In this document: piece by piece, positions 52,131 through 64,000 of the stretch
Numbering within the stretch: the stretch's first letter is position 1
Layout: each line of letters begins with the position of its first letter
Source of the DNA: a virus
DNA length: 64,000 nucleotides
Direction: 5' to 3' (one strand)
Virus record (IMG/VR): IMGVR_UViG_3300025141_007995
Coordinates: 2,730-66,729 of that record
Notes under the pieces: model-generated
Told to the model about the DNA's origin: nothing
The model's database searches: none
Seen by the model: only the letters and a program-made list of their open reading frames with translations
Program-made: the position numbers and the translations under genes

Positions 52131-53261
52131 ATGGCAGTATATAAAATATTTCCCGAACAAGATACTTTTATCTATACTCAAGTAGTAACCGGTAATGCTG
52201 GATACGATGAGATATTAGAAATAGGTGGTTATAATATACAAAACATTGGACAATCCTCAAGAGCATTAATACAGTTTAAAACATCTGAAATAGTTAATAC
52301 TGTTAATAGAACTATAGCAACTGGGTCTTGGAGTGCTAGTTTAGATTTATCGCTAGCTTATGGATACGAAAACCCCGCAACACAGTCTGTATACGTCTAC
52401 CCCTTAGCTCAGCAATGGGAAGGAGGATTAGGTAAATTTGGAGATGAACTAGGATCTTCTTTAACTTCTCAAAGTGCTGATAAGTCTGGTTGTTCTTGGA
52501 GATATAGAAAAGCAGAAGAAACTGACGCATGGACATTATCTAGCTTTCCTACCGACGTGACTGGCTCATATAACGCTACTTACCCTGGAGGAGGTAGCTG
52601 GTTTTCAGCTTCAAGCGGAACTAATTTAGAAGCTACTCAAAGCTTTAGCCTAAACGATCAGCTTGATTTAAGTGTAGATGTTACTACAGCTGCAAAATTA
52701 CATTACTCAGGTACTTTAAACAACTATGGTTATATAGTTAAACTTCAAGATAGTTTAGAATTTAATTTATCATCCTCACTACTTAATAAATACTATAGCA
52801 GTAACACCAATACTATATACCCTCCATCACTAACACTTAAATGGGACGATAGCGCATACGATACAGGGAGTTTAACACTACTATCCTCATCCGAAGCTAT
52901 ATGCCAGGTATCTAATAATAGAGGAGAATATGCCGATATAGGTAAAACTAGATTTAGATTATTAGCTAGACCGATAGCACCTCCTAGAATATATACTACT
53001 GGGTCTATATACAAAACTAATTATGCACTACCTTCTGGTTCATTTTACGGACTACAAGATGCATATACAGAAGAAATGGAAATACCTTTTGATACCGCCT
53101 TTACTAAGGTAAGCTGTGACTCTACAGGTCCTTATTTTGACGTATTTATGAGCGGATTACAACCAGAAAGGTATTATAAAATATTAATTAAAAGTACACT
53201 AGATGGTACTACATCAATATTTGATGATGATAATATATTTAAGGTAGTTAGAAATGGCTAA
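52131..53261 (+). CDS. Virion structural protein (beta-sandwich)
   Basis: DTFIY..SRALIQF..W.GG.G..YPPSL..WDD; located in the baseplate block. Confidence 0.6.
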   Translation: MAVYKIFPEQDTFIYTQVVTGNAGYDEILEIGGYNIQNIGQSSRALIQFKTSEIVNTVNRTIATGSWSASLDLSLAYGYENPATQSVYVYPLAQQWEGGLGKFGDELGSSLTSQSADKSGCSWRYRKAEETDAWTLSSFPTDVTGSYNATYPGGGSWFSASSGTNLEATQSFSLNDQLDLSVDVTTAAKLHYSGTLNNYGYIVKLQDSLEFNLSSSLLNKYYSSNTNTIYPPSLTLKWDDSAYDTGSLTLLSSSEAICQVSNNRGEYADIGKTRFRLLARPIAPPRIYTTGSIYKTNYALPSGSFYGLQDAYTEEMEIPFDTAFTKVSCDSTGPYFDVFMSGLQPERYYKILIKSTLDGTTSIFDDDNIFKVVRNG

Positions 53262-53616
53262 GAAGTACGATATAAGGATACAAAAAACAGTCTTAAATAA
53301 AGATCAATTTGATAAAGCAGTTGATACTACATTTAAAACGTTTGTCACAACCCCTGATGAATCAGATGAAATAACTTTACCTGAATTTTTTAACTTATAT
53401 GAAAAACTTTACTACGATATACCGGTTGAAGGAGAAGTTAATTCACATGAATTTCTAGTTGTTGAAAGCGGTAAATTAGTAAACTTAGAGCAAGACACAA
53501 CAGAAATACAGCCATTATTAGATGAGATAACTACTTTGAGAGAAAGAATATTAGATCTAAATAACGATATAATAGAGTTACAAACAGAGAATTTGACCAA
53601 CGATGCCACAGACTAA
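53254..53616 (+). CDS. Structural-block protein with C-terminal coiled coil
   Basis: EFFNLYEKLYYDIP..SH..L, then heptads. Confidence 0.6.
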   Translation: MAKKYDIRIQKTVLNKDQFDKAVDTTFKTFVTTPDESDEITLPEFFNLYEKLYYDIPVEGEVNSHEFLVVESGKLVNLEQDTTEIQPLLDEITTLRERILDLNNDIIELQTENLTNDATD

Positions 53617-61868: not shown

Positions 61869-61877
61869 AGAAAAAAT

Positions 61878-64000
61878 ATGAGTTTTACAGTACCTACAGG
61901 AAGTAATTTTAATATGTTTACAGCTAGTTTAGCTGATACTCATTCTGTACAATATAATGTATCTAGATCTCTTGAAGGATTAATAACAGCATTTTCTGCT
62001 TCCTCTTTTAATGACTTTATATCAGCTTCACTAACTGATGATTTTTATGATGGAACTCTATCTGGCTCTCTTTCTGCATCTTTAGTAATATCTTCTTCAA
62101 ATCAATTTAAAGGCTTTCCTGTAACCGCTACCCCCACCCAAACAGTAACGGTAACACCTTCCCTAACTGCAGGGGCTTCAGCTACTCCTACTCAAACCCC
62201 TACTAGTACAGCAACAATAACTCCTACCGCTACTCCTACTTCAACTGCAGCAGCAACAGCTACCCCTACTAATACTCCTACAAGTACTGTAACCCCTACA
62301 AAAACTGCAACTGTTACTCCTACTATATCTTTAACTCCAACAAATACCCCAACAGTAACTCCTACAAGCACTGTAACACCTACTCCTACTGATCCTTTAG
62401 ATAGCGTTAATGTAAGAATATCTGTAAGCGCTTCTTCTGCATGTAATTCAGGAGAAGGAACATCAGCTGTAATAACTATATTTGATCAGCCTACTTTGCA
62501 AAATGGAGATATACTTTACTCTTCTTCTAATGCTTCTTCATTTATTACTTTTAATCATTTACAAACCAAACTATCTACCGGAGCAAATACTATATTTATG
62601 ACCTCAGGTAGTACGGTATTTACTTTAAACCCTACAGGTTCTAATTCTTATATTTTATCTACCGGAACGTGTCCTACTCCAACTCCTACTGTAACACCGA
62701 CTAGAACTATTACTCCTACAAATACAGTTACACCGACTAATACACCAACTAAAACTGTAACAGCATCACCTACAGCAACAGCAACATCTACAGCTACCCC
62801 GACAGTCACTCCGTCACCATCAAATCCTTTAGATGCTTCTAACTATAGATTAGCAACTAGCGCCTCAGCAGCTTGTCACACTGGAGAAGGCCCATCTGTT
62901 GTTATAGCTATATATGATGCCGATCAACCATTAGAAACTGGTGAACTATTATACGAAAATTCTGGAGGTACTGACTTTTGGACTTTTTCAGAATTACAAA
63001 CCCTTGTTACATCATCGGCTAATACTTTATTTGTTCAATCAGGGAGTATAGTTTATACTGTAAATGCAACAGGATCTAATAGTTTTGTATCAGGATCAGG
63101 TGCATGCCCTACACCAACTCCTACTCCAACAGCTAGTCCTACAGCAACAGCTACTCTAACACCAACTGCTACCGCTACAGTAACCCCGACAAACACTCCT
63201 ACTAATACTGTAACATCAACAGTAACTCCGACAAACACTCCTACCAATACTGTTACCGCTACAGTAACACCCACTATATCTTTAACAACAACAATTACGC
63301 CAACTGGTACACCAACCAACACTCCTACTAATACTGTAACTCCTTCTGAGACTCCTACTAATACCGTAACACCAACTGTTACACCTACAATATCTGATAC
63401 TCCTACTGCTACGCCTACCGTTACACCAACCAAAACAGCTACATCGACTGTAACACCAACTAATACCCCTACTAATACAGTTACACCTTCTGAGACTCCA
63501 ACCCTTACTCCTACCAAATCTGATACAGCAACTCCTACCCCTACTGCAACAGCTACAGTAACTCCAACGATATCTGATACTCCTACATCTACTCCTACAC
63601 CAACAGTCACACCAACGATATCTGACACACCAACTGAGACACCAACCAACACTCCTACAAGTACAGTAACACCTACTGAGACACCTACTAATACAGCAAC
63701 TAGTACTGTTACACCAACCGAGACTCCAACTAATACCGCAACCCCTACCGTTACGCCAACTGAGACTCCAACTAATACTCCTACAAGTACTGTAACACCG
63801 ACAATATCGGATACCCCAACATTAACACCGACTAATACTCCAACGATATCGGATACTCCGACTAATACTCCGACTGAAACTCCTACTAATACCGTAACAC
63901 CAACTGTTACACCTACAATATCTGATACTCCTACACCAACTCCTACTAGTACAACCGCTACACCAACTCCTACGGTAACGCCTACTAATACAACTGCAAC
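61878..64000 (+). CDS. Long mucin-like Thr/Pro protein with repeated globular modules (runs off the window; absent from ORF track)
   Basis: ATG at 61878, MSFTVPTGSNFNMFTASLADTHSV; TPT tracts alternate with two PLD..SAS.AC..GEG..GxCPTP modules; no stop seen. Confidence 0.85.
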   Translation, partial: MSFTVPTGSNFNMFTASLADTHSVQYNVSRSLEGLITAFSASSFNDFISASLTDDFYDGTLSGSLSASLVISSSNQFKGFPVTATPTQTVTVTPSLTAGASATPTQTPTSTATITPTATPTSTAAATATPTNTPTSTVTPTKTATVTPTISLTPTNTPTVTPTSTVTPTPTDPLDSVNVRISVSASSACNSGEGTSAVITIFDQPTLQNGDILYSSSNASSFITFNHLQTKLSTGANTIFMTSGSTVFTLNPTGSNSYILSTGTCPTPTPTVTPTRTITPTNTVTPTNTPTKTVTASPTATATSTATPTVTPSPSNPLDASNYRLATSASAACHTGEGPSVVIAIYDADQPLETGELLYENSGGTDFWTFSELQTLVTSSANTLFVQSGSIVYTVNATGSNSFVSGSGACPTPTPTPTASPTATATLTPTATATVTPTNTPTNTVTSTVTPTNTPTNTVTATVTPTISLTTTITPTGTPTNTPTNTVTPSETPTNTVTPTVTPTISDTPTATPTVTPTKTATSTVTPTNTPTNTVTPSETPTLTPTKSDTATPTPTATATVTPTISDTPTSTPTPTVTPTISDTPTETPTNTPTSTVTPTETPTNTATSTVTPTETPTNTATPTVTPTETPTNTPTSTVTPTISDTPTLTPTNTPTISDTPTNTPTETPTNTVTPTVTPTISDTPTPTPTSTTATPTPTVTPTNTTA

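Follow-up and report, generated by a model that had tools for sequence, protein, structure and literature searches.

A serine-bearing tripeptide on the outward-facing tail proteins of a large phage and its relatives: a candidate site for phage-encoded modification

Why should one short tripeptide, [S/T]-[G/A]-S (serine or threonine, then glycine or alanine, then serine), recur many times in the tail proteins of a virus and be nearly missing from its other genes? The question is raised by a stretch of 64 kb, hereafter the window, taken from a 66.7-kb viral contig (IMG/VR record IMGVR_UViG_3300025141_007995, positions 2,730 to 66,729), in which every gene is on the plus strand and the G+C content is about 31%. 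A preliminary description of this DNA had suggested that the tripeptide saturates the virion proteins and serves as an acceptor signal for modifying enzymes of the phage. In this large Flavobacterium-type phage and in its relatives, the outer baseplate and tail-fibre proteins contain the tripeptide five to twelve times more often than expected, with a sharp residue specificity; it is restricted to certain domains, turns over in evolution and co-occurs with a conserved pair of glycosyltransferase genes. From these observations we infer that the serine may be modified, that the modification could be a glycan and that the enzyme pair could be responsible for it.

Excess of the tripeptide in the distal tail module

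The motif-rich region begins right behind the gp25-like and gp6/J-like baseplate wedge genes and comprises 9–10 genes, mostly without a family match. Because of this position, and because a short tail fibre with an S74 chaperone domain (60495–61022) lies inside it, the region is taken to be the module of distal baseplate and fibre genes. With its counterpart in the Flavobacterium phage vB_FspM_immuto (immuto hereafter), a 160-kb myovirus in which the gene order is identical, the gp6-like baseplate protein shares 57% identity; the figure falls to 40% in the Microcystis phage Mel-JY01 and to 36% in LR756508, an uncultured 484-kb phage. The proteins are named below by the first position of their genes, which are the following:

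49911..52129, plus strand: gp25-like and gp6/J-like baseplate wedge genes (GPW_gp25 and Baseplate_J matches), virion proteins without the motif
52131..53261, plus strand: 376-residue protein right behind the gp6-like wedge gene, 7 copies, no Pfam or PHROG match
53254..53616, plus strand: 120-residue module protein, 0 copies in the window
53603..56608, plus strand: 1001-residue baseplate-distal protein, 19 copies, all inside residues 321–832
56621..57820, plus strand: 399-residue module protein, 6 copies
57865..58524, plus strand: 219-residue module protein without excess (1 copy, 0.59 expected), an internal contrast
58529..59527, plus strand: 332-residue paralogue of the 59531 protein, 6 copies, with a C-terminal block common to both
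59531..60493, plus strand: 320-residue protein with the highest motif density, 11 copies
60495..61022, plus strand: 175-residue short tail fibre with C-terminal S74 chaperone domain, 5 copies at residues 29–61
61029..61868, plus strand: 279-residue protein with a motif-bearing N-terminal domain, a proline/threonine linker and a cysteine-rich end, 4 copies
61878..63998, plus strand: protein of at least 707 residues running off the window, 15 copies
31749..34058, plus strand: 769-residue Hint protein, in which 7 copies lie in an N-domain of unknown fold and 1 in the tandem Hint/intein-like domains behind it

Each protein was shuffled 1000 times, and the mean count was taken as its expectation. 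Among the 81 plus-strand open reading frames (ORFs) of at least 80 residues, 4–19 copies were found in nine, and none or one in the remaining 72. The excess was strongest in the 53603 (19 observed, 2.05 expected), 59531 (11 and 0.93), 60495 (5 and 0.47) and Hint (8 and 1.11) proteins, followed by those starting at 52131 (7 and 1.38), 56621 (6 and 1.33) and 58529 (6 and 1.19). The 61029 protein is a weaker case (4 and 1.32, p 0.03); so is the 61878 protein, with 15 copies and 3.6 expected by shuffling, since dipeptide content alone predicts 12.8 of the 15. The hand counts of the preliminary description (about 19, about 11, 5 and about 8 in the 53603, 59531, 60495 and Hint proteins, respectively) were exact on recount, and the two proteins named there as all but free of it, a ligase (40365–41627) and a glycosyltransferase (10388–11821), contain no copy and one copy. 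The copies are dispersed, as had also been stated: 18 of 65 spacings are of 10 residues or fewer, with 13 ± 3 expected at random. A clustering of copies in doublets was considered and rejected, this count being reached in 145 of 2000 random placements.

Serine, threonine and glycine are abundant in the enriched proteins, and the dipeptide content explains the 61878 protein, so that an artefact of amino-acid composition, of low complexity or of a repeated DNA word had to be considered. When blocks of 10 or 20 residues were shuffled, the expectation rose only to 3.5 and 2.9 for the 53603 protein, 1.3 and 1.2 for the 59531 protein, and 1.7 and 1.5 for the Hint protein, and the observed number was reached in 0 of 2000 shuffles for any of the three; the counts of the proteins other than 61878 thus stand well above the global-shuffle, block-shuffle and dipeptide expectations. 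In a screen of all tripeptides over eight module proteins (3101 residues), TGS (25 observed, 2.45 expected), SAS (13 and 2.22) and SGS (14 and 2.66) ranked right behind the TPT/PTP linker peptides, whereas the permuted or neighbouring words SGT, TGT, SAT, AGS, NGS and DGS were at chance. Moreover, 81 motif copies are encoded by 59 distinct 9-base words, and their codon use is that of the background at four of the five positions tested, the exception being threonine at position 1 (chi-square p 0.002), indicating that the signal lies at the level of protein and is not a DNA repeat. The composition-controlled test that had been proposed for this DNA therefore leaves the excess in place, and an artefact of this kind is hardly conceivable. 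The host sequon could be set aside as well: the Bacteroidota O-glycosylation sequon, D[ST][AILVMT], from which the motif had been said to differ, is not enriched in 11 of the proteins (22 observed, 24.3 expected), and was rejected as an explanation. Judged by eye only, the N-termini of these proteins show no charged-then-hydrophobic leader such as an export signal might have.

Specificity, turnover and distribution among related phages

A specificity profile was obtained from 204 module proteins (132,037 residues). At position 1, serine and threonine are enriched 4.8-fold and 5.4-fold, and every other residue at most 1.6-fold; position 2 accepts glycine (6.4-fold), alanine (3.4-fold), glutamine (2.4-fold) and serine (2.1-fold); position 3 is serine (5.1-fold), threonine, asparagine and aspartate being at 1.0, 1.0 and 0.9. 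A generic turn or capping role is disfavoured, because it would also favour asparagine, aspartate or threonine. The small residues replace each other in the same alignment columns, as at site 89 of the 59531 family (glycine 12, alanine 8, serine 5) and at site 144 of the 52131 family (glycine 19, alanine 15), suggesting that a small side chain is needed and not the backbone conformation of glycine. The two residues before the motif favour tryptophan, phenylalanine, valine and isoleucine, the residue after it tryptophan, tyrosine and leucine, and proline follows the motif at 0.1 times expectation.

Some copies are conserved and most are not. In the family of the 53603 protein, sites 394, 495, 605 and 780 are kept in 60, 62, 48 and 46 of 63 homologues; in the 58529 family, 37 of 38 homologues keep site 276 and 33 keep site 179, and 35 of 52 keep site 245 of the 52131 family. 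On the other hand, only 291 of the 925 copies in the 53603 family stand in columns common to at least half of the sequences, so that about one third of the copies are in conserved columns and the remainder turn over. The Mel-JY01 counterpart is about as dense, with 13 copies, most of which do not coincide with any homologous position among the 19 of the window, and LR756508, which is as distant as Mel-JY01, has lost nearly all of them.

The distribution was followed in 79 related viral contigs. The 52131, 53603, 58529 and 59531 families are at 4.2–6.5 times expectation, whereas five core baseplate families are at 0.0–0.6 times. The 52131 family (70 related ORFs) has 360 copies and 65 expected; the 56621 family (5 ORFs) 30 and 6.6; the 53254 family (76 ORFs) 37 and 8.1; the 57865 family (50 ORFs) 47 and 32; the gp25 family (55 ORFs) 3 and 5.9; and the gp6 family (64 ORFs) 41 and 70. 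Even within one protein the border is clear: in 64 sequences of the 53603 family, residues 1–300 are depleted (8 and 23, 0.3-fold), residues 300–850 are strongly enriched (644 and 98, 6.5-fold), and the variable C-terminal part is at 3.6-fold (273 and 76). Thus, the claim that the virion proteins are saturated was right for the fibre and distal baseplate genes and wrong for others, namely the gp25-like (0 copies), gp6-like (1 copy, 1.29 expected) and 57865 proteins. Relatives of the 53603 protein are encoded on 537 contig stretches. The 57865–58524 protein is 73% identical in a contig (L064) in which its neighbours are at 31–44%; this unusually conserved part lacks the motif and is probably internal.

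The Hint protein, which the preliminary description had linked to the virion by its motif, does share the signal. In 119 homologues its N-terminal part contains 629 copies where 114 are expected (5.5-fold), whereas the Hint part has 6 where 24 are expected (0.25-fold); two sites of the N-domain are well kept, site 347 in 103 of the 119. Hint-family Pfam matches cover residues 459–691; the N-domain, of about 455 residues, matches no known family by Pfam or by a PDB search, in which the matches fell in the Hint domains only, and it has no match in cultured phage records. Each Hint domain ends in the usual His-Asn, and the next one starts with Cys. The family counts 218 proteins at E 0.001 or better, with 1–3 Hint units and lengths of 605–914 residues among the 120 listed.

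Counts do not exceed chance in the portal, tube-like, hub, tape-measure and capsid proteins of immuto, the tube-like protein having no copy at all; an immuto fibre-like protein has 13 copies (1.75 expected). The immuto sheath (L084:42855-44984) has 8 copies (2.6 expected), all in an insertion domain before residue 400; its conserved C-terminal core has none of the 8. The pattern is repeated gene by gene in Mel-JY01 and in contig G001. In the Rhodothermus phage RM378, six proteins in one cluster hold 27 copies, with 4.2 expected and the same flanks, and the structural proteins of this phage have no BLAST similarity to the module of the window. By contrast, no excess was found in any of 26 virion proteins of T4, gp7–gp12 and gp34–gp37 included (11 observed in these, summed expectation about 14), and therefore the motif is not required by myovirus baseplates and fibres as such.

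The 60495 protein is itself an S74-chaperone tail fibre (Peptidase_S74 PF13884, E 6.8e-13, residues 89–138), with 33 PHROG matches, 22 of the 25 listed being to tail-fibre or baseplate families. In 120 longer S74 fibres, the motif is enriched 2.25-fold overall, compared with 1.07–1.74 for seven control patterns; the enrichment exceeds 3-fold in 34 of the 120, often with one copy per repeat, and one fibre carries 61 copies. Pfam named no repeat in eight motif-rich fibres, a PDB search with repeat-rich fibres gave matches at the S74 or YadA-like ends only, and in cultured phages the matches of two motif-rich fibres by tblastn were confined to small domains held in common.

Where the sites lie in a fold was inspected on an AlphaFold2 model of the 59531 protein, the one structure on which sites were mapped. 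The model (26 sequences in the alignment, mean predicted local distance difference test score, pLDDT, 64.5) has a beta-sandwich core and long low-confidence segments. Seven of the 11 copies are at pLDDT below 50, in segments holding 31% of the residues (binomial p 0.026), and three further, well-modelled copies lie at strand borders. The ordered core gave weak immunoglobulin-like matches only (best Z 6.1). Foldseek found no match to the model at E 0.001 or better, and PDB sequence searches gave chance-level matches for the 59531 family (E 0.9) and no relative for the 53603 family; for the 53603 protein, the ESM Atlas returned scores of at most 0.86, to be taken as leads only.

The two paralogous fibre-like genes at 61029–63998 have a common N-terminal domain followed by very long proline/threonine linkers. 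In the 61878 gene, a cysteine-containing domain of about 140 residues is repeated.

The glycosyltransferase pair and its genomic setting

The phage has glycan genes of its own, as the preliminary description had supposed, in a locus at 10388–26157:

10388..11821, plus strand: 477-residue GT-B glycosyltransferase, first of a conserved pair (Glycos_transf_1 E 1.9e-10; PHROG 2170)
11823..13088, plus strand: 421-residue divergent paralogue, second of the pair (Glycos_transf_1 E 1.4e-4, below cut-off; PHROG 2170 E 3e-15)
13539..26157, plus strand: a GT2 glycosyltransferase (210 residues), a sugar-nucleotide cassette and a closing GT2 (391 residues), with two Glycos_transf_2 matches (Pfam/NCBIfam)

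The cassette contains two genes of the UDP-glucose/GDP-mannose dehydrogenase family, two epimerase/dehydratases, an aminotransferase, an acyl-CoA-ligase-like gene and a cytidylyltransferase. In immuto (L089:16407-23989) the same frame of glycosyltransferases surrounds a different cassette, with WecE-type aminotransferases, a methyltransferase and a 'pilin glycosylation protein'; judging from these gene contents, the cassette looks swappable, in the manner of a serotype. In the cassette of the window, at 14590–16484 on the plus strand, a dehydrogenase-family ORF of 270 residues matches only positions 72–181 of the N-terminal domain model and overlaps the following, TTG-started epimerase ORF; it may be truncated, or its start miscalled. 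A full-length paralogue is present at 20497–21777.

Homologues of the 477-residue transferase were found in immuto, Mel-JY01, LR756508 and RM378, and the second gene in immuto, G001, Mel-JY01 and RM378; in LR756508, BLAST did not find the partner, the first transferase and the nuclease before it being kept. The best solved relative of the 477-residue enzyme is B736L of a chlorovirus (E 1.3e-15 over positions 5–323). At E 0.01 or better, the NCBIfam models that respond to the transferases are BshA, MshA and similar ones only, all far below their cut-offs.

Strong excess of the motif and the complete pair are found together in all five genomes with strong excess, i.e., the window, immuto, G001, Mel-JY01 and RM378. 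LR756508, with the first transferase only, has a weak excess in its module proteins (0 copies; 4 with 1.4 expected; 0; 3 with 0.7 expected), and T4 has neither excess nor a match to the 477-residue transferase. The expectation that the motif would track the glycosyltransferase content across relatives thus holds in the few genomes in which it could be examined, and this co-occurrence is what links the motif to glycosylation. When complete genomes with motif-rich fibres and no glycosyltransferase were sought, five further contigs gave no match to PF00534 (PF00535 was not run there), and are uninformative because they are only 10–53% complete; likewise, the transferase had no match in three contigs of 25–34% completeness.

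What the motif may be for

We consider it quite possible, and not far from an even matter, that the motif is an acceptor site for a phage-encoded modification of serine. According to this explanation, the signal would be a short recognition motif of the form hydrophobic-hydrophobic-[S/T]-[G/A]-S-hydrophobic, and a phage enzyme would modify the serine on outward parts of the tail, namely the distal baseplate proteins, the fibres and the N-domain released from the Hint protein. For the enzyme, the best candidate would be the conserved GT-B pair at 10388–13088, acting in the cytoplasm before or during assembly on a sugar drawn from the neighbouring sugar-nucleotide cassette, which varies between related phages. 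A recognition motif is favoured over a by-product of a fold because of the sharp specificity, the interchange of glycine and alanine, the turnover and the occurrence across unrelated domains. Indeed, the signal spans families without detectable kinship, such as fibre repeats, loops of an immunoglobulin-like sandwich, the sheath insertion, the N-domain of the Hint protein and the RM378 proteins, and is missing from inward or core parts, that is, the N-terminal part of the 53603 protein, the gp25 and gp6 families, the immuto portal, tube, tape measure and hub, and the Hint domains. The share of sites in low-confidence segments of the 59531 model, the fact that the best solved relative of the 477-residue transferase comes from viruses that make the glycans of their own capsid protein, and the difference in sugar cassette between the window and immuto speak for modification as well.

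The most specific version of this explanation, in which a two-gene GT-B enzyme O-glycosylates the serine of hydrophobic-[S/T]-[G/A]-S-hydrophobic on all outward tail parts with a glycan set by the swapped cassette, would give the host-recognition apparatus of the phage a 'serotype coat'. It would hold for a clade of large myoviruses, aquatic and thermophilic, that is widespread and infects Bacteroidota, Rhodothermota and Cyanobacteria. Taken with all its parts, this proposal is tentative and rather unlikely.

The main rival is a structural idiom, which we regard as a serious possibility, on the doubtful side: the tripeptide would serve as a tight strand-turn-strand or packing element within shuffled, beta-rich, mostly trimeric building blocks, its serine unmodified. 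Fibre modules are exchanged between phages, so that a shared building block could spread the motif. Several observations that fit this explanation weigh against modification at the same time. Hydrophobic residues make up 47–51% of positions −2, −1 and +1, compared with a background of 29% (in a smaller sample), with the preferences for aromatic and aliphatic residues and the avoidance of proline given above, and lysine and arginine are depleted before the motif; such flanks suit strand ends packing into a core. There are sites that are nearly invariant at 30–45% identity (62 of 63, 60 of 63, 37 of 38 and 25 of 26 homologues), and in two of four families the serine or threonine of the motif is kept more than other serines and threonines (0.58 compared with 0.35, 0.65 compared with 0.44). 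The motif recurs once or twice per unit in tandem-repeat fibres, among them the immuto fibre genes and metagenome S74 fibres, including the one with 61 copies. Finally, the three well-modelled copies of the 59531 protein sit at strand borders; the model is shallow, and its low confidence may stem from absent partner subunits and not from exposure.

The idea that a glycan coats the whole virion, as put forward in the preliminary description, fails on the distribution: there is no enrichment in capsid, portal, tube, tape measure or baseplate core, and the major capsid protein of immuto, with 3 copies and 1.3 expected, speaks against a coat of this kind. The link to the transferase pair is open to objections, too. 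The seven genomes behind the co-occurrence are phylogenetically non-independent, five of them sharing the baseplate module, and no homologue of any of the 17 glycan-cluster proteins lies closer than 10 kb to the fibre module at any of 80 loci. Neither transferase matches the NCBIfam models of protein O-glycosyltransferases at E 0.01 or better. Moreover, a PD-(D/E)XK nuclease gene precedes the transferase or transferases in the window, in immuto and in LR756508, the RM378 pair follows, translationally coupled, a DNA-polymerase-I-like gene, and the window has a DUF1599 gene ('nucleotide modification') at two genes before the first transferase. The loci concerned are 9230–13088 of the window and, outside it, L168:4256-7314 and L086:8212-11893. 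Such nuclease and polymerase-like neighbours hint at a DNA-related role of the pair; the context would fit DNA glycosylation equally well, which is a fair alternative for its function. Of the routes to DNA glycosylation, a hydroxymethyl-pyrimidine pathway was the one looked for, by its ThyA-family enzyme, and it does not accompany the pair in every genome: PF00303 is present in immuto and G001 and not in Mel-JY01 and RM378, i.e., in two of four.

What keeps the structural idiom from displacing serine modification is that the specificity is narrower than a turn or cap would need, asparagine, aspartate and threonine being unfavoured at position 3 and asparagine and aspartate at position 1, and that the glycine and alanine forms are both enriched and interchangeable. 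In addition, two thirds of the copies are positionally unconserved, the trimeric, beta-rich baseplate and fibre proteins of T4 are without excess, and the N-domain of the Hint protein and the insertion domain of the sheath are also marked. Sharp specificity, turnover and spread over unrelated domains are traits of short linear motifs in general, and the motif could instead be recognised non-covalently, read by a fibre chaperone or a docking partner in the baseplate, or binding glycans on the host surface. The density of copies in the N-terminal attachment regions of the 60495, 61029 and 61878 proteins, and the conserved copies in segments that the monomer model cannot place, agree with this; nonetheless, no candidate reader protein was identified, nineteen copies per chain are many for a docking signal, and the link to the transferase pair would be left unexplained, so that we judge non-covalent recognition improbable.

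Serine modification by a phage enzyme would have partial parallels in known systems. Freeman and colleagues reportedly described, in 2023, virion O-glycosylation of mycobacteriophages by phage-encoded glycosyltransferases. The account in PMC12619734 places these glycans at the C-termini of capsid and tail-tube subunits. The window resembles that system in belonging to a tailed phage with glycosyltransferases of its own (one Glycos_transf_1 match above cut-off, its paralogue below, and two Glycos_transf_2 matches) and in the proposed cytoplasmic decoration of its own structural proteins. It differs in that the candidate sites are internal, dispersed tripeptides on distal tail parts, and in that the immuto capsid and tube-like proteins lack the excess (the window's own capsid and tube genes are outside the contig); the transferase genes, too, are remote from the structural ones. 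Chlorovirus capsids bear N-linked glycans at sequons of their own. According to PMC4691112, chloroviruses build their own capsid-protein glycans, and B736L of chlorovirus NY-2A (PDB 3oy2) is virus-encoded with its target unproven; like it, the 477-residue transferase is a virus-encoded GT-B enzyme beside virus-encoded sugar-nucleotide genes, while host, virion type and motif are all different.

Among bacterial systems, GtfA and GtfB, two neighbouring GT-B paralogues of which one is degenerate, O-glycosylate serine-rich repeat adhesins in the cytoplasm, and the repeats of AIDA-type autotransporters are heptosylated, again at serines of repetitive, beta-rich surface proteins. The pair of the window is likewise made of adjacent GT-B paralogues of 477 and 421 residues, one divergent, and is kept in immuto, G001, Mel-JY01 and RM378. 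Unlike GtfA and GtfB, neither member matches the NCBIfam models of these proteins at E 0.01 or better, and no solved GtfA chain is among the 53 PDB profile matches of the 477-residue transferase. The signature hexapeptide of S-layer O-glycosylation in Lactobacillaceae is, according to the review PMC10221546, a word of serine, small residue and serine occurring once per protein; the likeness ends there, because the motif consists here of dozens of dispersed tripeptides and the enzymes are unrelated as far as tested. None of the 82 motif contexts from 11 proteins contains this hexapeptide in its exact form. With S74-chaperone fibres the likeness is direct, the 60495 protein being a member and the longer fibres being enriched, and yet, unlike a tail-fibre repeat, the motif also stands on non-fibre domains and is not in excess in T4 fibres. 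A full-text literature search, supplementary files excluded, retrieved no paper describing the motif on phage proteins.

If the serine is modified, phage virions would be glycosylated in a second, mechanistically distinct way, with its own sequon, a candidate enzyme pair and a strain-variable glycan, placed where the particle encounters the host surface, grazers and defences. It would span many uncultured aquatic phages, sequence alone would suffice for reading their sequons, and the engineering of fibres would have to account for it; cultured relatives (immuto, RM378 and Mel-JY01) make the idea testable now. If the motif is purely structural, it is still useful as a marker in sequence for those tail proteins that face outward in this clade, the majority without family match, and it still groups the Hint-domain protein with them.

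As for the remainder of the window, about 1.8 kb at 41627–43461 have no ORF of at least 80 residues and no tRNA gene, and tRNA genes are lacking from the window as a whole. The minus-strand ORFs at 63053–64000 are probably shadows of biased sequence (GC skew −0.46).

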